Source: an uncultured Nitrospiraceae bacterium (GTDB taxonomy: Bacteria; Nitrospirota; Thermodesulfovibrionia; Thermodesulfovibrionales; Dissulfurispiraceae). Taken from it: DNA of 23,906 nucleotides. The stretch is from assembly GCA_947085205.1 (NCBI GenBank), contig CAMTVO010000064.1:1-23906 (forward strand), given 5' to 3'. Shown here piece after piece: positions 291-11,160 of this stretch (the first letter of the stretch is position 1; every line of letters starts with the position of its first letter). The translations under genes and the position numbers were made by a program. The notes below the pieces were generated by a model. It was not told where the DNA came from and made no database searches. It worked only from the letters and a program-made list of their open reading frames with translations.

Positions 291-1229
291 TTACATTAAC
301 TCGTTTATGAATTTTTCGACGGCAGCCGCAGCCTCCGGATGCCTCATGATTAAAAACTCAGCGCCGGACATTAACAATGCAGACGCGGTCACAGCCTCCC
401 ACGCCACTCCTCTTTCCTTGAGGCTTCCGCCATAGGGAAGTTCTGATTCAGACGCCTGCGTCTCTTTTACTTTCCATACATACATGCCGACATCGGCAAG
501 CATCGGAGGCTGCATTGTAGCATCGTTCTGCGTAAGCGCAGCAAGCCTTATCCTCTCCATAACCGAATAAGTATATTCAAGTCCGTAACCGAGGGCTGAG
601 CACATAGGGTCAGTTATCAGCTTCTCTTTATCAAATCCCATCTGTGTTATGAGTATGTTAAGCTGCTTTGAAAGATTTATATCCAGCTCCGACATTGCTA
701 TGAGCTTATGATTGTTTGCCATTGCAGCCGCGACAACAGTCTTGTAGTTTCCTTCCTGCGCCTTTCCGATAATGCAGTTTTTACCCTTTGCGGCTTCAGA
801 GACTGCAACAAGCACGGAAGCGTCTTTCTCTATATTATTGCTGCCGAGTATTATCAGCGGGATATTTATTGCAGAAAGGACGTCTTTAACCGTCTTTGCA
901 GCATCCTCCGGAGAGCGGTTTTCCCTGTCCGGATGGGTTCCGACAAGCCTCAAGACTATTGCCTTTGCCTTCAATTCATCCTGACAGTATTTGGCCCATT
1001 TTACAGGGTCGTCGGAAACTCCGTCATATACCTTCCTCACCTCGTCAGGCCAGTCCTGAGGCAGAACATCCTGGATTTCATAGGCGACCACCGGCCCATT
1101 GGGGACATTGCCCTCAAAAGAACAAAATGGGAGCACATTCTCTCCGCCAAACTTAACGGCATTGTCCGTGCCGATGGCAACTTCAAAAACCTTGCCTGAA
1201 AAAGTCTCCTTTGGTGCAACAAAAGCCAT
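291..1229 (-). CDS. acsD: Corrinoid Fe-S protein small subunit (CFeSP delta)
   Basis: Motifs FGGENVLPF, DPVKWAK, DINLSKQLN, ALGYGLEYTYSVMERIRLAAL, MRHP; SD GGAGG; context between acsE and acsC. Confidence 0.95.
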   Translation of the reverse strand: MAFVAPKETFSGKVFEVAIGTDNAVKFGGENVLPFCSFEGNVPNGPVVAYEIQDVLPQDWPDEVRKVYDGVSDDPVKWAKYCQDELKAKAIVLRLVGTHPDRENRSPEDAAKTVKDVLSAINIPLIILGSNNIEKDASVLVAVSEAAKGKNCIIGKAQEGNYKTVVAAAMANNHKLIAMSELDINLSKQLNILITQMGFDKEKLITDPMCSALGYGLEYTYSVMERIRLAALTQNDATMQPPMLADVGMYVWKVKETQASESELPYGGSLKERGVAWEAVTASALLMSGAEFLIMRHPEAAAAVEKFINELM

Positions 1230-1239
1230 GTCTTACCTC

Positions 1240-1316
1240 CGTAATCTGTAATCCGTAATGCGTGATGGGTTGGAAAAATTATTTACTCATTACCCATTAC
1301 TCATTACGCATCACGG
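1240..1316. repeat. Two inverted arrays of degenerate 7-bp tandem repeats
   Basis: CGTAATC-TGTAATC-CGTAATG-CGTGATG (1240-1267) faces TTACTCA-TTACCCA-TTACTCA-TTACGCA-TCACGG (1283-1316). The arrays are approximate reverse complements. Confidence 0.85.
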
Positions 1317-1321
1317 TCTTT

Positions 1322-2104
1322 TTACATTTCTAAATATGAATGTGCATAAAGGGTGTTGTTCATTATCACATCTATTGTTTTTACTGTTTCCATGACCTCA
1401 TGTGCGTCGGCAATTGCTGAGGTGAGCCCCTCATACATCAACAGCGCAAGAAAATATCTGTTCAATATTGGACGCAAAGCCTTTGGACAACCGTTAGATA
1501 TATTACTTAATCCTATTGTGGTCTTCATTGGAGGGTCATTAAGTTCCTGAAACATTTTTATAGTCTTTATCACTTTTAGCGCATGGTCCTGAGAAGTCGC
1601 TATTTGAAGAGCAAGAGGATCAAGGTATAAATCCTCAAGGGGAACGCCGTATTCCATAGCCCTCGCCATTATCTCGGCGGCTATTGCCGCCCTTTCCTCT
1701 GCATCCGCAGGGAGTCCGCCCTTTCCTACCGTCAAGCCGATTATCTGCGAGTTATATTTTGCGGCAAGCTCAAGTATCGGAAATCGTTCAGGGTCGTTGG
1801 ATGTGGAGTTAATCAACGGTCTGCCCCATTCATTGTTATGCACTTTCAGTCCTGCCTCTAATGCATTGTAGTTTGTCGTATCAAGACAGATAGGCAAAGG
1901 AACAACCTCCTGAATAGTCGTAACCATCCACTCCATCAACTCCTCTCCGCCATCCTCTGCAGGACCTATGTTTGCGTCAATCATCCCTGCACCTGACTTC
2001 CATTGAGCGGCGGCAATCTCCTGTATCGGGCCTTTGTCTCTCTTCATCATAGCCTCTCTCACCCTCTTGGCTATAATGCTCAATTTTTCGCCAATTATCA
2101 GCAT
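1322..2104 (-). CDS. acsE: Methyltetrahydrofolate:CFeSP methyltransferase (pterin-binding TIM barrel)
   Basis: MLIIGEK start, LPICLDTTN, PLINSTS, LYLDPL, TTIGLSNISNG motifs; SD GGAGGGAG; acs cluster context. Confidence 0.93.
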   Translation of the reverse strand: MLIIGEKLSIIAKRVREAMMKRDKGPIQEIAAAQWKSGAGMIDANIGPAEDGGEELMEWMVTTIQEVVPLPICLDTTNYNALEAGLKVHNNEWGRPLINSTSNDPERFPILELAAKYNSQIIGLTVGKGGLPADAEERAAIAAEIMARAMEYGVPLEDLYLDPLALQIATSQDHALKVIKTIKMFQELNDPPMKTTIGLSNISNGCPKALRPILNRYFLALLMYEGLTSAIADAHEVMETVKTIDVIMNNTLYAHSYLEM

Positions 2105-2127
2105 ATTCTTCTCCCTCCGCTACAAAA

Positions 2128-2145
2128 TGTAATTGCTATGTTACA
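2128..2145. promoter_or_regulatory. Palindromic candidate operator upstream of acsE
   Basis: TGTAA-TTGCTATG-TTACA, 18 bp, just upstream of the acsE SD. Confidence 0.35.
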
Positions 2146-2306
2146 AAAGGTAAAGTTTTGGAATTTAAATAAAGTTCTTAAAAGTAACACAAAACACCTT
2201 TCAAGTAAAGAGAATCAGTTATTTGTTTATCTTATAAACTTATAATATGCCGATTTTCAAGGGAGACAATAGGATTGGCCTTGAGCGGCTTTTTTCGCTT
2301 CATTAA

Positions 2307-3074
2307 TTACGGTATTCCCAACGACTTGAGCACGCCAAACAAAGCATCCACAGACCTTGCATTTTCTGGAAGTTCAAATACAGGCTTGCCTTCCAAATCG
2401 AATTTGAATACCATATCGTCATGAGGCACAAGCCCTGCCACATGGATACCGAAACCCTCTGCCATTTTTCTGAGATCTTCGCCTTCCTGTCCGATAACCC
2501 TGTTGATGATAAGCACACGCCTGTCGACATCGAGCTGCAGCTCGTCCACAAGCTCGTTTATCCTCTTGGCAGTCATAACGCCTTTTACTGTCGGGTCGCT
2601 GACGATTATAAGCAGATCAACTTTATGTGTAGTTCTCCTGCTCAGATGCTCCATGCCTGCTTCATTGTCTATAACGACATAAGGATATTTATCCGAGAGC
2701 AGGTCTGTATATTTCCTTATTATATTATTCGCTGCACAATAACAGCCAGGCCCTTCAGGCCTTCCCATTACCATGAGGTCAAAGTCCTTTGCTTCAATCA
2801 ATGACTGCTGAACCTGATAATCAAACAACTGCTCCATTGACATGCCGCCCGGCCTGTCTCCTCCGCCTCTCACTGCCTGAAGGGATTCCTCCCTCAACTT
2901 TCCAATGGTTGCATGAATCTTGACACCGAGTGCTTCATTTAAACATGCATTGCTGTCGGCATCCACTGCAAGCACAGGCCCGTTCCTCTTGCTTAATAAA
3001 AATTTTATTGTCAGTCCTGCGATGGAAGTCTTTCCTGTTCCGCCCTTTCCTGCAAAGGCTATCGTAAATCCCAT
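2307..3074 (-). CDS. cooC: CooC/AcsF nickel-insertion ATPase
   Basis: Deviant Walker A GKGGTGKT, VDAD, GPGCYCAAN (CxC Ni motif), IDNEAGMEHLSR. Confidence 0.93.
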   Translation of the reverse strand: MGFTIAFAGKGGTGKTSIAGLTIKFLLSKRNGPVLAVDADSNACLNEALGVKIHATIGKLREESLQAVRGGGDRPGGMSMEQLFDYQVQQSLIEAKDFDLMVMGRPEGPGCYCAANNIIRKYTDLLSDKYPYVVIDNEAGMEHLSRRTTHKVDLLIIVSDPTVKGVMTAKRINELVDELQLDVDRRVLIINRVIGQEGEDLRKMAEGFGIHVAGLVPHDDMVFKFDLEGKPVFELPENARSVDALFGVLKSLGIP

Positions 3075-3839: not shown

Positions 3840-4604
3840 ATGGGCAACATAAAAATCGGCGTAATCGGCGGCTCTGGATTGGACGACCCAAGGCTGATGA
3901 AGGGCGCAAAGGGAAAGAAGGTAAAGACACCTTACGGCAGTCCATCGTCGCCTCTGACTATCGGAAAGATAAACGGAGTAGATGTAGCAATCCTCGCCCG
4001 CCACGGCAAAGACCACTCAATCTATCCAACAGGGGTCAATTTCAGGGCAAATATATATGCCTTGCAAAAAGAGGGCTGCACCCATATCCTCGCCACAACA
4101 GCAGTCGGCTCTTTGAGAGAAAAGATAATGCCCGGGGACATTGTATTTGTTGACCAGTTTATAGACTTTACAAAGCACAGGCCGCTTACATTCCATGACG
4201 AAAAGGTAATTCATACGCCAATGAGCGAGCCGTTCTGCAATGACCTGCGCTCGCTTGTCATTTCATCAGCAAAGGAATTAAAACTCAGGCACCATACAAA
4301 AGGCACGGTAATTACCATAGAAGGGCCGCGATTCTCCACAAAGGCAGAATCTCATATGTTCAGGGCATGGGGCGCTGATGTTATAAATATGTCAACAGTT
4401 CCTGAAGTAATACTCGCAAGAGAGGCAGGAATCTGTTACCAGAGCATAGCAATGTCAACGGATTACGACTGCTGGAAAGAAGGCGAAGAGCCTGTTACAT
4501 GGGAGATGATACTCGAAATAATGTCTAAAAATGCCGATAATGTAAAAAAGCTGCTTATAAAAACCATTCCAAAGATTAAAAACACAAAGTGCAACTGCAA
4601 ATGA
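3840..4604 (+). CDS. mtnP: S-methyl-5'-thioadenosine phosphorylase
   Basis: [39 protein letters not shown] motifs; SD AGGAG. Confidence 0.93.
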
Positions 4605-4617
4605 AAGGAGATAAGCA

Positions 4618-5151
4618 ATGCCGATTAAATCAAAAATAAGAACTATACCGGACTATCCCAAGAAGGGCATCATGTTCAGGGACATAACCACACTTATTAA
4701 AGATCCTGTAGGCTTCAGGCTCGTAATAGATAATTTCACCCAAAGATATATCAAAGGCGACATTGATTTCGATGTAATCGTAGGAATCGAATCGAGGGGA
4801 TTTATCATAGGCGGAGCGCTCTCCTACACATTAGGAAAGGGCTTTGTCCCTGTAAGAAAAAAAGGCAAGCTCCCTGCAGAAACGATAAGCCACGAATACC
4901 AACTCGAATATGGCACAGATACCGTCGAGATGCACAAGGACGCCATAACAAAAGGCACAAAGGTGATCCTTGTGGATGACCTCCTTGCCACAGGAGGGAC
5001 AGCCCTCGCGGCAGCAGCCCTCGTTGAGAAATTAGGGGGCATCGTCTCTGAAATGGCGTTTATAGTCGATCTGCCGGATGTGGGCGGCGCAAAGAAGCTT
5101 GCAGGCAAGGGATACAAAATATTTGCATTGACGGAATTTGAGGGAGACTAA
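4618..5151 (+). CDS. apt: Adenine phosphoribosyltransferase
   Basis: PDYPKKGIMFRDITT, ESRGF, RKKGKLP, LEYGTD, VDDLLATGGT (PRPP-binding). Confidence 0.97.
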   Translation: MPIKSKIRTIPDYPKKGIMFRDITTLIKDPVGFRLVIDNFTQRYIKGDIDFDVIVGIESRGFIIGGALSYTLGKGFVPVRKKGKLPAETISHEYQLEYGTDTVEMHKDAITKGTKVILVDDLLATGGTALAAAALVEKLGGIVSEMAFIVDLPDVGGAKKLAGKGYKIFALTEFEGD

Positions 5152-5159
5152 TCTTTTTC

Positions 5160-5168
5160 TGCTATAAT
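5160..5168 (+). promoter_or_regulatory. Extended -10 promoter, leaderless configuration, for the polA N-terminal ORF
   Basis: TGcTATAAT, then 5 nt, then ATG at 5174; no SD at a usable distance. Confidence 0.7.
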
Positions 5169-5173
5169 CATTC

Positions 5174-6091
5174 ATGAACCTCTATCTTATCGACGGGAAT
5201 TCCTATTTTTACAGGGCATATCACGCTATAAGGGGGTTAACCAATTCAAAGGGCTTTCCTACCAATGCAATCTACGGCTTTACAAATATGATTCTCAAGA
5301 TAATACGGGAGAAAAAACCTGATGCAGTTGCAATTGCCTTTGATTCTCCCGTTCCTACAGAGAGGCACAGGATATATGAGGAATACAAGGCACAGAGGCC
5401 TGAGACGCCAAATGATTTGGTTATCCAGATTCCACATATAAAAGAAATCATACGCTCATTTAAAATATCTTCGTTTGAGATGCCGGGTTATGAAGCGGAT
5501 GATATTATCTCTACCATTGCAAAAAAGGCTGCATCACAGAATATCGATGTATTCATACTAAGCGGTGACAAAGACATGATGCAGGTTGTAGGTAGTGGGA
5601 TAAAGATTTACGACCCCATGAAGGATATGATAATCGATGAAAATCATGTAAAAGAAAGATTCGGAGTCCCTCCTGAAAGACTCCCTGAGATAATGGCCAT
5701 AACAGGCGATGCAATAGACAATATTCCTGGAGTCAAGGGAATAGGCGAAAAGACGGCAAAGGAGCTTCTTTCAAAGACAGGCAGCCTCGATGAGCTGATC
5801 AAGCATCCTGAAAAAATAGAGAGCGAGAGGATTAGAAAAATGATAGTGGAAAATATAGAAAACATAAAAATCAGCAAGACCCTCGCAACCATCGATACAA
5901 ACATACCTATCGATATAAACCTTCAGGATATGAAAATAAAAGAGCCTGATTGGCCGGCACTGCTTCATATATTCACAGAGTTTGAATTCAAGAGACTTAT
6001 AAGGCTTATCCCCCCTGAAAGTTACAAGCCGAGAGGACAATACATGGCTATTACCGATAAAGAGGATTTGAAAAGGCTTTTGGGAATTTGA
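5174..6091 (+). CDS. polA: DNA polymerase I N-terminal part: 5'-3' exonuclease/flap endonuclease (split polA)
   Basis: LIDGNS, PTNAIYGF, YKAQR, EADD, SGDKD, GDAIDNIPGVKGIGEKTA are all intact. Ends in YMAITDKEDLKRLL, resembling the first helix of the 3'-5' exonuclease domain, then stops. Confidence 0.93.
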   Translation: MNLYLIDGNSYFYRAYHAIRGLTNSKGFPTNAIYGFTNMILKIIREKKPDAVAIAFDSPVPTERHRIYEEYKAQRPETPNDLVIQIPHIKEIIRSFKISSFEMPGYEADDIISTIAKKAASQNIDVFILSGDKDMMQVVGSGIKIYDPMKDMIIDENHVKERFGVPPERLPEIMAITGDAIDNIPGVKGIGEKTAKELLSKTGSLDELIKHPEKIESERIRKMIVENIENIKISKTLATIDTNIPIDINLQDMKIKEPDWPALLHIFTEFEFKRLIRLIPPESYKPRGQYMAITDKEDLKRLLGI

Positions 6092-6102
6092 CGATGGGAT
6101 GA

Positions 6103-6225
6103 GAGAAGCAGAAGGGCATGTTGAAATTTTTTGATTTTGTCTATATCACCAAACCCGGGAAATGGGAAAAGCCTATTTGTGAGTTCTCAAAAATTTTAGA
6201 CGACTTGAATACTATATATCGCTAA
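6103..6225 (+). pseudogene. Possible 3' remnant of a gene convergent with the methyltransferase (candidate restriction endonuclease C-terminus)
   Basis: Open frame EKQKGMLKFFDFVYITKPGKWEKPICEFSKILDDLNTIYR*, stopping 8 bp from the MTase stop codon, tail to tail. Identity inferred from context only. Confidence 0.4.
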
Positions 6226-6233
6226 ACCATCTG

Positions 6234-7840
6234 CTAAAGTTTTTTAAGCAAGACAATACTTTCTTTTTGCATTGTAAATCCGGTTTTGCCTTGCACATTT
6301 GTAGGACTGTTTTGAAGAGGCATTCTCTTGTTGGGAATATTTCTAAAAAGAATGCCCTGAGAAACAAAACCTATTTTCTCCCCGAACTCACAGATTATCC
6401 CATCGGTTTTTAATACCAGTTCTTTTACGGTTCTATTGCCAACAATAAGGCAAAAATATTTTTTAGGGCGTAAAATCTTGTGTGCTTGAACAAGCGCCTT
6501 ATACAAGTCCTTATAAAAACTAAGAACTTCTTTTGCTCGCTCCTCATCTCTCTCGGAAATAATTTTTATGCTTAATCTTAAAGTATCCGACAAGTCAATC
6601 ACAGGGTCATTGAGGCTTATATTGTTTTTGCCTCCAAGCAGTTCTTTGTCGATGTCTTTAATCTGAGGGGGCAATAAATCCAGCCATTGGGCCGGCAACC
6701 GCGAAAATTGTCCATAGGCTACTGTAGTTCTGCTGTCTCCGTAGGGAGGCGAAGTTATAATAAAATCTACAGAGTCCGGAGGAATGCCGTTATCTTTTGT
6801 TGAATCACCAAGTATAATTTTGACATTGGCATTAGGTATTACATCATTGATATATTCCTTCATGCACAAGATGTTATTTTCACATATCCTCACAAACTCA
6901 CCCGGAACATCAGGCTTAAAAGATTTTTCTAATTTGCTTTTATCCCTGAATAGTTTAAATTCCTTATGCCTCGTAAAAGAAACAATCCTTGCAACCTCGC
7001 TGAAGCATACTGAAAAAAAATTTCTGATATTTTCTTCTGAGATATTCCATATCGCCTGCTTGAGTTTTGCGAGGTCTTTAATGACTGATTCGGAAAACCA
7101 GAAATCAATATTATTGAATTGGGGAGATACGGCATTTTTCATGTTGTTATAGCCGGATAAAATTGTTTTTAGATTGTCGGTCAAAGTCTGCGGGTCTATA
7201 GGCGTGGTTTTGACCTTTGCAATCAGCACAGCCAGGGGGTTTAATTCAATACCGATGGAATTTCTGTTCAAAAGGCTGCTTTCAACAAGGGTAGTGCCTG
7301 AGCCGCAGAATATATCGCAAACAGTATCATGTTCGGATGAAAAGACTTCTATCAGTTTCCGGGCCACTTGCGGTATGAACATGGCAGGGTAAGTATGAAA
7401 TCCGTGAGTATAGGTTTTAGTTCGATAGTTTTTAAAGTCCCATTCCTCTATCCATCTGAATATATCCGTGCTGGTGTCGTAATGCTGTTTGTGGCTTCTA
7501 ATATTTCTCATTGTTATTTGCTGCTGCAATCTTGCGACAGATGATGTATCAATTTCAGGCGGCTCAAAAAGAGTGTATCCTGCAGCTTTTTCTTTTACAA
7601 AATAAGGGGACTGATTGGCGGAAGTTTTGTATTTGCTTGGATTTTGAGGGGCAGTAAATGATTTGCTTACGGTTAAATAATTCTCTAAATCCTCTCTATG
7701 AATCTGCGCTGACCGCCTGGAGTTCTCACAGATTGAATCAGCCCTTTTTCTTCCATGCGGTAAATTGTTTTTGAACTAACCCCTAAAAGCATAGCCGCTT
7801 GTTTTGTGTTGAGCATTTCAATCGTTGCAGTTTTGTTCAT
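6234..7840 (-). pseudogene. HTH-fused N4-methylcytosine DNA methyltransferase (alpha class, M.MvaI/M.PspGI-like) with a 1-nt frameshift near 7700
   Basis: THGFHTYPAMFIP, motif I DIFCGSGTT before motif IV TSPPYGDSRTTVAYGQFSR. The MTase frame stays open upstream of the track's TTG (7529) through HREDLENYL and overlaps the HTH ORF that starts at 7840. Confidence 0.8.
7685..7840 (-). CDS. Xis/MerR-like HTH domain (51 aa); probably the N-terminus of the methyltransferase
   Basis: MNKTATIEMLNTKQAAMLLGVSSKTIYRMEEKGLIQSVRTPGGQRRFIERI*, with the typical RTPGGxRRF wing; SD GAGG upstream. Confidence 0.8.
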   Translation of the reverse strand: MNKTATIEMLNTKQAAMLLGVSSKTIYRMEEKGLIQSVRTPGGQRRFIERI

Positions 7841-7857
7841 AGCAGACCTCGCTATAA

Positions 7858-7886
7858 ACTATACATCATTGGACAAGATTAGTCAA
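7858..7886 (-). promoter_or_regulatory. Sigma70 promoter of the HTH-MTase gene
   Basis: TTGACT-N17-TATAGT on the minus strand, ending 18 nt before the ATG at 7840. Confidence 0.75.
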
Positions 7887-7994
7887 ATCAATATATCCAA
7901 AGGGTAGCGTATAGTTGTAAAAATTATTAAAAATCCATATCTTTTGGCAATAAAAGTCATCACCTCTATTTCCTTTATATATAACTTCCGCTTC

Positions 7995-8003
7995 TGATAA
8001 ACT
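7995..8003 (+). promoter_or_regulatory. Extended -10 promoter, leaderless configuration, for the polA C-terminal ORF
   Basis: TGaTAAACT, then 6 nt, then ATG at 8010. No SD; in-frame stop at 7998-8000. Confidence 0.55.
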
Positions 8004-8009
8004 ACGAAT

Positions 8010-9824
8010 ATGGAACAATTTTCCCTTTTTAAAAGCAGCAAGGAGCCTGAAACGGAGCAAACCGTCTCCGAAACGCCGTCAACTTCACCTATCGCCCATA
8101 GTCCATCGCCTATTGCCCAGATTTCATTTGACATCGAGGCCACTGGCAGAAATCCCATATCAGACTCCATTGTCGGCATTGCATTATGCAAGGAGAAGGG
8201 CAAGGCATATTATGTTCCGATAAGACATAAGCACGGCGAGAACATACCTGACGCATTAGGCATATTAAAGGAAACACTCGAAAACGAATCCATTTCCAAG
8301 ATAGGCCATAACCTTAAATACGACATCCTCATATTAAGGCAGGAAGGGATTCATGTAAAGGGCAAGTTATACGATACAATGCTTGCAGCTTATTTGCTCA
8401 ATCCCAACAAGCCCGATCACAGCTTCGAAAATGTCGGGCTCGAATATCTCTTCCATAAAAAAAGGGCATTCAACGAAGTGCTCGGGAAACGACATTCATT
8501 CTCTGATGTGCCTATAGAGGAGGCAACGCAGTATGCGGCCGAAGATGCAGAATTGGCGATGGAGCTAAAGGACATCCTCTTTGAAAAACTTGGGAATGAA
8601 GGACTTGAAAAGCTGTATTTTGAAATGGAGATGCCGCTAATTTATATCCTTACAGACATGGAAGAGGCAGGCGTAAGGATAAATAAGGAGAGACTCGAAG
8701 AACTCTCAAAGGAACTGGATAGGGAGCTCGGAATAATAGAATCGAGGATATACTCAATTGCAGGCGAAAGTTTCAATATAAACTCGCCGAAACAGTTGCA
8801 AAAAATACTTTTCGAAAAGCTCGGACTAAAGCCATCGAAGAGGACAAAGACCGGATACTCTACAGGAATGGACGTCCTCCAAGAACTGGCAAGGACACAT
8901 GAACTCCCGATGGAAATCCTTAATTACAGGACATTGTACAAGCTGAAAACAACATATGTAGATGCTTTGCCAAAACTCATAAATAAAAAGACAGGCAGGG
9001 TGCATACATCATTTAACCAGACCGTAACTGCAACAGGAAGATTAAGCAGCAGCGAGCCTAATTTGCAGAACATACCTGTTCGGGGAGAATGGGGAACAAA
9101 AATCAGAGAGGTCTTTATTGCTGCTGAAGGATGCGTCCTTGTCTCTGCAGACTATTCGCAGGTGGAGTTAAGGATACTCGCCCATATGAGCAATGACAGA
9201 GGCCTGATTGATGCCTTTAAAAATGATATTGATGTGCACACAAGGACAGCTTCGGAGCTGTTCGGCATTCCAAAAGAGTCTGTAACAGAAGACATGAGGC
9301 GTATAGCAAAGACAGTGAATTTCGGAGTTGTGTATGGAATAAGCCCCTTTGGCCTGTCAGAGGCGCTTGATATATCACCCAAAGAGGCAGGCAGTTATAT
9401 AAACCGGTATTTTGATAAGCATGGCGGCGTTAAAAACTATATGGAAAATACCATTAAGACAGTGCAAAAGACAGGATATGTCACAACCCTGATGGGCAGA
9501 AAAAGGCCGATCCCCGAGATCAACAGCCATAACTCAAACATCAGGCAACAGGCTGAAAGGCTCGCAATAAACACGCCCATTCAGGGAACTGCCGCTGATC
9601 TGATAAAGATAGCAATGATAAACATCTCGAATAGACTCAAAGAAAAAAATCTCAAGACAAGGATGGTCCTTCAAATCCATGACGAACTTCTGTTTGAAGT
9701 GCCTGAGGATGAGCTTGAAACTGCTAAAAATCTGATTAAATATGATATGGAGAATGCCCTTGCCCTATCAGTGCCATTGAAGGTTGATATCGGGCACGGT
9801 AAAAACTGGGCAGAGGCGCATTGA
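8010..9824 (+). CDS. polA: DNA polymerase I C-terminal part: 3'-5' exonuclease + polymerase (Klenow-like; split polA)
   Basis: ExoI FDIEATG, ExoII GHNLKYD, ExoIII YAAEDA; TGRLSSSEPNLQNIP; motif A DYSQVELR, motif B RRIAKTVNFGVVYG, motif C QIHDEL. All intact. Confidence 0.95.
   Translation: MEQFSLFKSSKEPETEQTVSETPSTSPIAHSPSPIAQISFDIEATGRNPISDSIVGIALCKEKGKAYYVPIRHKHGENIPDALGILKETLENESISKIGHNLKYDILILRQEGIHVKGKLYDTMLAAYLLNPNKPDHSFENVGLEYLFHKKRAFNEVLGKRHSFSDVPIEEATQYAAEDAELAMELKDILFEKLGNEGLEKLYFEMEMPLIYILTDMEEAGVRINKERLEELSKELDRELGIIESRIYSIAGESFNINSPKQLQKILFEKLGLKPSKRTKTGYSTGMDVLQELARTHELPMEILNYRTLYKLKTTYVDALPKLINKKTGRVHTSFNQTVTATGRLSSSEPNLQNIPVRGEWGTKIREVFIAAEGCVLVSADYSQVELRILAHMSNDRGLIDAFKNDIDVHTRTASELFGIPKESVTEDMRRIAKTVNFGVVYGISPFGLSEALDISPKEAGSYINRYFDKHGGVKNYMENTIKTVQKTGYVTTLMGRKRPIPEINSHNSNIRQQAERLAINTPIQGTAADLIKIAMINISNRLKEKNLKTRMVLQIHDELLFEVPEDELETAKNLIKYDMENALALSVPLKVDIGHGKNWAEAH
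8088..8120. repeat. 7-bp tandem repeat inside the polA C-terminal ORF
   Basis: CCTATCG-CCCATAG-TCCATCG-CCTATTG-CCCAG; encodes PIAHSPSPIAQ just before ExoI. Confidence 0.8.
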
Positions 9825-9893
9825 TGTTTAACATTTAAATTTATTTTGTTATATAATTAGCTTAAATCGGCAATTGCTTTAATTGGGGGGGAT

Positions 9894-11060
9894 ATGAAAA
9901 AGCAGGAACTCACAGGGAAAAACATCTCTGAGTTAAGGACAATGGCAAAAAAAGCCGGGATAACCGCTAAGAGCAACTGGAAAAAGGAAGACTTCATAAA
10001 AGCGATCTCTAAAGAAAAACCGGCAAAAAAGAAAACCGAAAAAAAAGCAGCTAAACCATCAAAGAAAAAAGCGCCGACTAAAAAAACCGCTGCCAAAAAA
10101 ACCGCCGCAAAGGCAAAACCACAAAAACCGGAAAAGAAGACAAAAAAGAAAATAGAGGTCAAGAAAGCTAAGGCTCCTGCAAAAGCTAAAATCAAAGCCC
10201 CTGTGAAACTTAAAGCAAAAGCACCCTCGAAGGTTAAAGCAAAGACGCCAGAAAAGAAAACTGCAAAAAAAGCAGTAAAAAAAGCAACACCAAAACTGAT
10301 AAAAAAAGAGATTGAAGCGCCCCTTGAGAAATTGACAGTCGCAGAACTCAAAACACTTGCAAAGGAACTCAATATACCTTTAAAGAGTGGTTTTAAAAAG
10401 GCTGATATTATCAAAGCCATAAGCAAAGCAAAAGTCAAAACTGAAAAGCCGGTGCCCAAGAAAGCAAAAAGGGCCGAAGCACCCAAACCAGCGCCGGCAA
10501 AGAAAGAGAAAGAGGCGGTTAAAAAAGTTACAGCCGCTAAAAAACGGGTTGTGATTTCAGAAATATTGCCTAAGGCATTAAAAAAAATTCCAGAGAAGTT
10601 GAAAAAAACGCCAAAAGCTCCTGAAGAACCGGTAAAATACCTTGTACCGGAGGAGATGCCACTGCTTCCGATAGGATACGGGGAGAACAAGCTTGCATCC
10701 ATGCCTGTAACTCCAAGCCAGATATATGTTTATTGGGAGATAACAGAAGATACCATATCCCAATACAGAGGAAGCCTAAATCTAAAAATAGTAAATTCAA
10801 AGACGAATGCCTTTTTCTATCTACCATTATCAGAAAGGATAGGCGAACACTTCATTAATGTCAGACCTGCTGCTGAATACAATGTGGAGATAGGGGTTAT
10901 AAATTATAAGGGAGAATTTGTTAAAATATTGCATGCCCTGCCGGTAGAAACCCCTGTATCAGGCGTGTCGTCGAGGGAAGCTCCCTCCGCAGGAGCAGAA
11001 GAAGCAGCCGAACTGCCGGAAGAATTCTTCGAAACACCGGAATCCATAAGCTCCTATTAA
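9894..11060 (+). CDS. Protein with two Rho-N-like helical domains, Lys/Ala/Pro-rich histone-H1-like linkers and a C-terminal DUF4912-like domain
   Basis: LTGKNISELRTMAKKAGI..WKKEDFIKAI and LEKLTVAELKTLAKELNI..FKKADIIKAI; repeats such as KKTAAKK and KAKAP; LPIGYGENKLASMPVTPSQIYVYWEI. Confidence 0.75.
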   Translation: MKKQELTGKNISELRTMAKKAGITAKSNWKKEDFIKAISKEKPAKKKTEKKAAKPSKKKAPTKKTAAKKTAAKAKPQKPEKKTKKKIEVKKAKAPAKAKIKAPVKLKAKAPSKVKAKTPEKKTAKKAVKKATPKLIKKEIEAPLEKLTVAELKTLAKELNIPLKSGFKKADIIKAISKAKVKTEKPVPKKAKRAEAPKPAPAKKEKEAVKKVTAAKKRVVISEILPKALKKIPEKLKKTPKAPEEPVKYLVPEEMPLLPIGYGENKLASMPVTPSQIYVYWEITEDTISQYRGSLNLKIVNSKTNAFFYLPLSERIGEHFINVRPAAEYNVEIGVINYKGEFVKILHALPVETPVSGVSSREAPSAGAEEAAELPEEFFETPESISSY

Positions 11061-11078: not shown

Positions 11079-11160
11079 GCGAGAGTGGCGGAACTGGCAG
11101 ACGCGCTGGACTTAGGATCCAGTGGGGCAACCTGTGGGGGTTCAACTCCCCCCTCTCGCA
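11079..11160 (+). tRNA. tRNA-Leu (anticodon TAG)
   Basis: Acceptor stem GCGAGAG/CTCTCGC with discriminator A; anticodon arm CTGGA-CTTAGGA-TCCAG; long variable arm; T-loop GGTTCAACTCC; CCA not encoded. Confidence 0.97.

Follow-up and report, generated by a model that had tools for sequence, protein, structure and literature searches.

A family of Nitrospirota encodes DNA polymerase I as two genes, with a likely sliding-clamp-binding motif at the start of the polymerase half

Why would a bacterium encode DNA polymerase I (Pol I), the textbook single-chain enzyme, in two genes? The question is raised by a stretch of 23,906 nucleotides (nt) from an uncultured Nitrospiraceae bacterium (assembly GCA_947085205.1, contig CAMTVO010000064.1), called the window below, in which two polA open reading frames (ORFs) lie on the + strand with a gap of 1918 nt between them. 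The first (5174..6091) encodes the 5'-nuclease, or flap endonuclease, of 305 residues (PF02739 and PF01367; it covers 2-284 of the 889 positions in the Pol I model NF004397), and the second (8010..9824) encodes 604 residues comprising the 3'-5' exonuclease, minus its first strand and helix, and the polymerase (PF01612 and PF00476). We find that this split is family-wide and ancestral to the family. It is almost certainly an old and functional fission, and we propose with fair confidence that the two genes make up a two-gene Pol I, derived from what was likely a single ancestral fission, whose polymerase half likely binds the β sliding clamp through a QxxLF motif. An earlier note on this DNA had seen the split; it had overlooked the motif and the re-fused forms of the gene.

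Both frames are free of internal stops, and the polymerase half of the window possesses the four exonuclease carboxylates (D41, E43, D105 and D179) as well as the polymerase motifs A, B and C, as the earlier note had stated. The best-scoring profile for both halves is the Pol I equivalog NF004397, and both score below the cut-offs of the stand-alone models. The polymerase half by itself clears the NCBIfam Pol I cut-off (800 versus 720 bits), and annotation would thereby miss the split. An intact polA elsewhere, which had been considered as a reason for doubt, was not found: PF00476 and PF02739 have no second match in the genome, which is 89.7% complete, besides these two ORFs. Misassembly is unlikely, because the same break recurs in 58 other genomes, one of which (G008) is a single contig, and this is the decisive evidence. 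Furthermore, a single contig of run X1, which may be the source of this DNA, covers positions 4500-10500 and spans the junctions with one difference. In run X6, which comes from another study and a related organism, one contig passes the stop of the N-half up to 6107 and a second links the polymerase half with the region before 7892; runs X3 and X5 gave scattered short pieces only.

The family was searched in 68 Nitrospirota genomes, probably Dissulfurispiraceae. A full polymerase match was present in 64 of them (G011, G014, G016 and G055 have none), and 63 could be scored, the contig of G070 ending before the junction. Two separate polA frames (~590-730 codons), all broken at one place, are found in 59 of the 63; the other four, which belong to two genera, have a one-piece polA with a single frame of 905-919 codons. 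The halves are adjacent, with nothing between them, in 44 of the 59 split genomes: 32 pairs share 4 nt between stop and start (G076, which carries an extra frameshift in the N-half, was counted here by hand), 7 pairs share 1 nt, and a gap of 7 or 8 nt separates the genes in 5. The genes lie apart in the remaining 15, several of these pairs being placed on different contigs or at distances above 1.5 kb. A 604-residue polymerase half is also present for Dissulfurispira thermophila (record P0013), which we take to be a cultured organism, and 119 of the best 120 database matches to the polymerase half have at most 617 residues.

How far does the split reach? The gene is intact in all 16 genomes, from 12 other families of the order, that were examined singly. 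Among the 101 non-family matches listed from an order-wide search of 257 genomes (87 further matches lay beyond this listing), 93 have frames of at least 861 codons, four lie at contig edges and four are broken elsewhere and lack the motif. A phylum sample of 136 genomes gave 116 non-family matches, 114 with frames of at least 827 codons, one at a contig end and one with a late frameshift. No split at the family's break point was thus found outside the family among the listed order matches and in the phylum sample.

Purifying selection acts on both halves. In comparisons with 11 close relatives, the ratio of nonsynonymous to synonymous substitution rates (dN/dS) is 0.027-0.099 for the N-half and, in 9 of the 11 pairs, 0.034-0.066 for the polymerase core (the other 2 are saturated), and these ratios are rough because dS, at 1.0-3.6, is near saturation. 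The comparison per half, a check suggested in the earlier note, is thus low for both (0.03-0.10 and 0.03-0.07) and supports the functional two-gene Pol I which that note had in mind. The D and E of motif A and the R, K and Y of motif B are present in all 64 family polymerases, the H, D and E of motif C in 63 (the remaining one is truncated), and the four exonuclease carboxylates are all kept in 52 of the 63 polymerase halves.

When did the gene break, and how often? Trees were built from the concatenated polA without tail, motif and linker (LG+G4), in a set of 80 rows and, with the same outcome, in a set of 68 rows, searched carefully, from which G070 and 11 long-branch rows were dropped; G070 was labelled split in the 80-row tree, in the event counts and in the approximately unbiased (AU) tests. 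The family forms one clade with a support of 100/100 in the 68-row tree, and within it the four one-piece proteins fall into two pairs, each nested, with starred support, in an otherwise split genus. Three changes of state suffice, and the number is the same in all 200 bootstrap trees of the 68 rows, whereas a fission-only history needs 14 events. The AU tests reject both a clade that holds every split row (p 8e-41) and one that unites all four one-piece rows (p 2e-11). All four one-piece forms keep the tail, QxxLF and the linker, and one of them (G046) shows, by eye, an in-frame methionine and TAATG just before the motif, as in the overlap of its split relatives. The simplest reading of these trees, and a likely one, is one fission followed by two re-fusions. 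At the junction itself (window 7960-8120; L004, L006, L147 and L143-L146), the upstream sequence or the linker of the polymerase half is near-identical across genera, a likeness that suggests either exchange of the junction or a common ancestor in which the genes were already separated.

The place of the cut is defined by the E. coli Klenow chain, with which an intact relative aligns from Klenow residue 5. When intact and one-piece family proteins are aligned, the C-terminal tail of the N-half (residues 287-305; 6032..6088, + strand) fills the first ~18 residues (Klenow chain 5-22), and the motif and linker form an insertion of ~33 columns ahead of the Exo I strand. The term natural Klenow fragment, used previously for the second half, thus fits its exonuclease and polymerase domains but not its start, where the first ~22 residues of E. 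coli Klenow are missing and a new N-terminus of ~36 residues stands. The tail holds the strand and helix with which the domain of the 3'-5' exonuclease begins, and it is likely a docking element: L299 and a Y or F at 290 are found in 57 of 57 genomes, and R287 in 54. The retention of the first exonuclease helix on the N-half, proposed in the earlier note, is therefore a conserved trait, and we consider it quite probable that this strand and helix would dock the N-half onto the polymerase half.

What, then, did the polymerase half gain at its new end? It opens with M-x-Q-x-S-L-F. The motif reads QFSLF in the window (residues 3-7; 8016..8030, + strand), where it likely binds the β-clamp, and it is followed up to the exonuclease strand by a variable linker rich in S, P, E, D and K (8031..8117, + strand), which is likely disordered; measured from the motif to the Exo I aspartate, the linker has 14-45 residues in the family (median 29) and few aromatics. 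Ahead of the exonuclease strand, QxxLF occurs in 62 of the 63 family genomes: the Q at position 1 is present in 62, the L at position 4 and the F at position 5 in all 63, and an S at position 3 in 48. The pooled ratio of nonsynonymous to synonymous differences (pN/pS) is 0.17 in the motif versus 0.62 in the linker behind it. Among the best 120 database matches, which were ranked by a query containing the motif, 106 have QxxLF inside the first 15 residues (98 with the Q as residue 3), and several of those that miss it resemble late start calls. At this place it is absent from all 16 intact outgroup enzymes, two of which have QEVLF within the polymerase domain, and the N-half contains no QxxLF. 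Only 6 occurrences of Qx[SD]LF are found in the 1550 ORFs of the genome, one of them in MutS at residue 814, and DnaN is present in the genome.

The excerpts of a recent preprint (bioRxiv 10.64898/2026.05.27.728225) give QL[S/D]LF as the consensus of the clamp motif, positions 1, 4 and 5 being the most important and the aliphatic residue at position 2 a preference that is not among the key positions, and they report clamp binding by QLELF, a peptide of B. subtilis Pol I. In those of another (bioRxiv 10.64898/2026.09.19.751633), M. tuberculosis Pol I binds the clamp via QLSLLDD, its Klenow part ~7-fold more tightly than the full enzyme (160 versus 1100 nM), and E. coli Pol I is described, in the same excerpts, as having no clear clamp motif. 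The tighter binding of the M. tuberculosis Klenow part gives a hint why a fission could be favoured. We hold with good confidence that the family's QxxLF would be a β sliding clamp-binding motif. Most of the intact Bacteroidota Pol I sequences that were fetched (L085-L142) carry motifs of the QLGLF, QMDLF or QGTLF type ~50-65 residues before Exo I, in the linker between nuclease and exonuclease, and there the motif is likely an independent clamp motif. A CTG after GGAG seems to be the start of the polymerase half in L013 and L152 (genomes G017 and G081) and gives M-K-Q-Y-S-L-F; because of this apparent CTG start, gene callers may miss the motif in these two genomes.

Expression signals are found before both genes. 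An extended -10-like element, TGCTATAAT (5160..5168, + strand), lies 5 nt before the ATG of the N-half as a predicted leaderless-type polA promoter, and a second one, TGATAAACT (7995..8003, + strand), lies 6 nt ahead of the ATG with which the polymerase half begins, as its predicted own promoter, both where the earlier note had placed them. Such elements exceed chance, because TG.TA...T peaks at 5-6 nt before starts genome-wide (14 and 21 of 997 ORFs) and is found in 4-11 of these ORFs at spacings of 7-10 nt and in 0-5 at each spacing of 10-29 nt. In 48 of 57 family genomes and 12 of 16 outgroup genomes, the N-half start is preceded by TAnnnT at a distance of 4-7 nt, and a pattern common to both points to an ancestral polA promoter. 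The element before 8010 recurs at the same spacing in G002, G013 and G063, and 4 of the 15 separated loci share it. A sigma-70 scan, which requires a -35 box, returned neither predicted promoter (20 sites versus 15.9 in shuffles). The separate regulation of the halves envisaged earlier would be the less common state, found in 15 of the 59 split genomes.

The halves of E. coli Pol I work when supplied apart. In the model we propose, an ancestral leaderless promoter would transcribe both genes, and stop-start coupling in translation would keep the halves near 1:1. The nuclease half would dock by its C-terminal strand and helix, thereby completing the exonuclease fold and restoring the 5'-nuclease-linker-polymerase geometry without a covalent bond. 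The free N-terminus of the polymerase half would offer QxxLF, on its flexible linker, to DnaN, and this contact would recruit Pol I to the clamps on Okazaki fragments and repair gaps. Because the halves need no common frame, the gap between them would accept mobile DNA, in the window a decayed restriction-modification cassette, as soon as the polymerase half possesses a promoter of its own. Finally, the halves would have re-fused twice, the motif being left as an internal loop. A more ambitious version, which we put forward tentatively and at somewhat below even odds, would be a two-subunit, clamp-loaded, Okazaki-processing Pol I with an N-terminal clamp anchor and an exchangeable flap endonuclease that donates a strand and a helix, the arrangement being reversible by re-fusion. 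If true, it would represent a bacterial midway stage towards the design seen in archaea and eukaryotes, in which a polymerase works with FEN1 under coordination by the clamp.

Several points, in addition to the near-saturation of dS, weigh against this model. At position 2 the motif mostly has Y, F, P, C, H, Q or R (27 of 63 have Y or F, 2 have L or V), and the DnaE of the genome lacks a canonical Qx[SD]LF. The tail has a pooled pN/pS of 0.43, between that of the cores (0.13-0.15) and that of the linker; in coupled loci its last codons share sequence with the signals that start the second gene, and the tail of G043, outside the 57, departs from the conserved pattern. The tree is a gene tree and not a species tree, and the polA gene trees may fit either the motif or the fission arising first. 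Lastly, at least one exonuclease carboxylate is missing in 11 of the 63 polymerase halves, so that proofreading is not a universal reason. The halves concerned are those of G020, G078, G079, G022, G041-G043, G019, G050, G061 and G003; seven fall in two genera, and ten keep QxxLF. In the DnaE (L229, contig 54 of G000; 1158 residues), the stretch near residues 935-940 reads FGPGLFG.

Could the fission be old and functional and QxxLF have another task? The motif might dock on the exonuclease domain of its own chain or else on the nuclease half; it might also reflect a constraint on the start of translation. Its unorthodox position 2 would agree with this, and so would the hydrophobic gap that, judging from the Klenow alignment, the break leaves and a short peptide could fill; the motif also sits where codon choice is generally known to affect initiation. 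Yet all four one-piece forms retain it, at an internal position, and so do 10 of the 11 halves whose exonuclease site is degraded; Q, L and F occupy the positions described as critical for the clamp in the preprint excerpts, and the intact Bacteroidota enzymes carry their motifs in a neighbouring linker. We regard such an alternative role as unlikely.

Slightly less likely again is that the halves never come together and act in turn, one as a free flap endonuclease and the other as a polymerase tethered to the clamp, in the manner of the separate enzymes of phages and archaea. The genes are apart in a quarter of the split genomes (15 of 59), the N-half has no QxxLF of its own, and stand-alone 5'-nucleases are known from phages and Mycoplasma, as the available part of one source describes (PMC3021548). 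Against this, the strand and helix of the N-half, with their invariant leucine and conserved aromatic residue, serve no role in the nuclease fold, stop-start coupling is found in 39 of the 44 adjacent pairs, and the two likely re-fusions indicate that the joined geometry still works.

An ancestral one-piece form with an internal QxxLF loop, in which the gene was split many times, is very improbable. It would account for the four genomes, from two genera, in which a single ORF holds the tail together with motif and linker, and breakage would come naturally in a floppy loop; it would, however, require the 14 independent fissions in place of three changes, both one-piece pairs nest in otherwise split genera, and the start-like TAATG of G046 resembles the overlap of split relatives. 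A short-lived fused ancestor with the loop may nevertheless have preceded the single fission. As for a recent insertion that broke polA and was domesticated, or a pseudogene, a misassembly or one protein made via frameshifting or splicing, the chance is negligible: foreign DNA does separate the halves in the window, and the -4 and -1 overlaps place the second gene in the -1 frame, but 44 of the 59 split genomes have no insert, the inserts vary between genomes, selection acts on both halves, only 4 of the 40 overlapped loci contain a slippery heptamer (and 4 more have a different frame), and neither half matches an intein family. Programmed frameshifting and an intein or split intein, the latter by a Pfam scan, were also considered as candidates in their own right and rejected.

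We thus retain the ancestral fission, and the insert of the window is a later, decayed type II restriction-modification cassette. Since most split genomes lack an insert and the inserts differ, it is a result of the split and not its cause, and the idea of an insertion that broke polA and later became domesticated was not borne out. What is left of a BsaWI-like type II restriction endonuclease gene in the cassette is its last 38 codons (6106..6225, + strand), 36 of 38 residues being identical to the C-terminus of the PF18643 protein of L066. Convergent with this remnant, on the - strand, follow the body of a type II DNA methyltransferase (6234..7697; PF01555; PADLOC MTase_II, E 2e-125) and, severed from it by a frameshift near 7697, the MerR/HTH_17 helix-turn-helix (HTH) domain at the N-terminus of the same gene (7688..7843; PF00376 and PF12728, from a reading of the frames). 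In L066 the endonuclease is intact (248 residues) and paired with a methyltransferase, as in BsaWI-like systems, where a PF18643 endonuclease is convergent with an N6/N4 methyltransferase; the insert of the window differs in its remnant endonuclease and its frameshifted HTH-methyltransferase fusion, and it holds no intact pair. The genome has no further copy of the endonuclease beyond the remnant. In G002, the cassette stands behind the N-half with the HTH-methyltransferase intact as one 536-residue ORF and only the start of the endonuclease; elsewhere the gap carries a Y1 transposase (G013) or another methyltransferase with an HhH-GPD fragment (G005). The contigs of run X6 have one extra base at 7698 or 7703, so that the frameshift looks strain-specific. 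Repeats or target-site duplications at the ends of the insert were limited to short, chance-like matches, and the number of WCCGGW sites in the window (19 versus 13.1 expected) was uninformative.

How does this enzyme compare with known systems? It shares with canonical bacterial Pol I (cd08637; NF004397, TIGR00593) the same three domains in the same order, with the catalytic motifs kept, and intact Pol I of sister families are 56-66% identical to it; the split enzyme descends from Pol I and likely works like it. It differs in having two genes, cut ~22 residues inside the Klenow start, and a new N-terminal motif and linker, the one-chain fusion of 5'-nuclease and polymerase being absent here and in the family's split genomes at large (59 of 63). 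According to the accessible text of Czernecki 2023 (PMC10201439), the 5'-nuclease is fused in 94% of canonical Pol I, the others being left undescribed, and the exonuclease/polymerase fission of T7-like phages is presented there as the first split in PolAs. As described in that text, the PolA of S-SBP1-like T7 phages resembles the present case in its fission, its overlapping new stop and start and its predicted reassembly; it is cut between exonuclease and polymerase, whereas the family enzyme is cellular, cut behind the 5'-nuclease, fixed family-wide and accompanied by a new motif and re-fusions. The QLSLLDD and QLELF motifs of M. tuberculosis and B. subtilis are likewise lineage-specific QxxL[LF] motifs in a low-complexity stretch of Pol I, for which the preprint excerpts report measured binding; they are internal to one chain (in M. 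tuberculosis between exonuclease and polymerase), and here the motif stands at a free N-terminus produced by fission. In Aquificae-like PolA (cluster 8, cd08639) and the stand-alone 5'-3' exonucleases (PRK14976, Xni), polymerase and 5'-nuclease genes are also separate; those are distinct subfamilies obtained by transfer, or paralogues, whereas both halves come from one gene in this family. Full-text searches, which mostly did not reach subscription papers, gave no description of the family's polA split, and the supplements of Czernecki 2023 may list its sequences.

These observations emphasize that a textbook single-chain enzyme likely works as two parts in a family of Nitrospirota, and they touch two open questions: why Pol I has its nuclease and polymerase joined in a single chain, and whether the enzyme makes use of the sliding clamp and, if so, in what way. 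One family with a cultured member provides the enzyme in naturally split, separated and re-fused form, and the covalent linker, docking and clamp tethering can be compared there. Furthermore, the split polA is a clean marker of the family as well as a blind spot of annotation, and the family is a natural source of Klenow-like polymerases that proofread and carry a likely clamp handle, some of them from hot-spring records.

The neighbourhood of the two genes holds a few other features. Upstream of polA, three genes on the - strand (291-3074) resemble what we take to be parts of the acetyl-CoA pathway: a corrinoid protein small subunit, a methyltransferase and a CooC-type ATPase. Directly 3' of the polymerase half (9894-11060, + strand) lies the gene of a 388-residue lysine- and alanine-rich protein with Rho_N repeats and DUF4912. 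It is followed by a tRNA-Leu(TAG) (11079-11160, + strand) and then by small ORFs on the - strand, a possible integration site.

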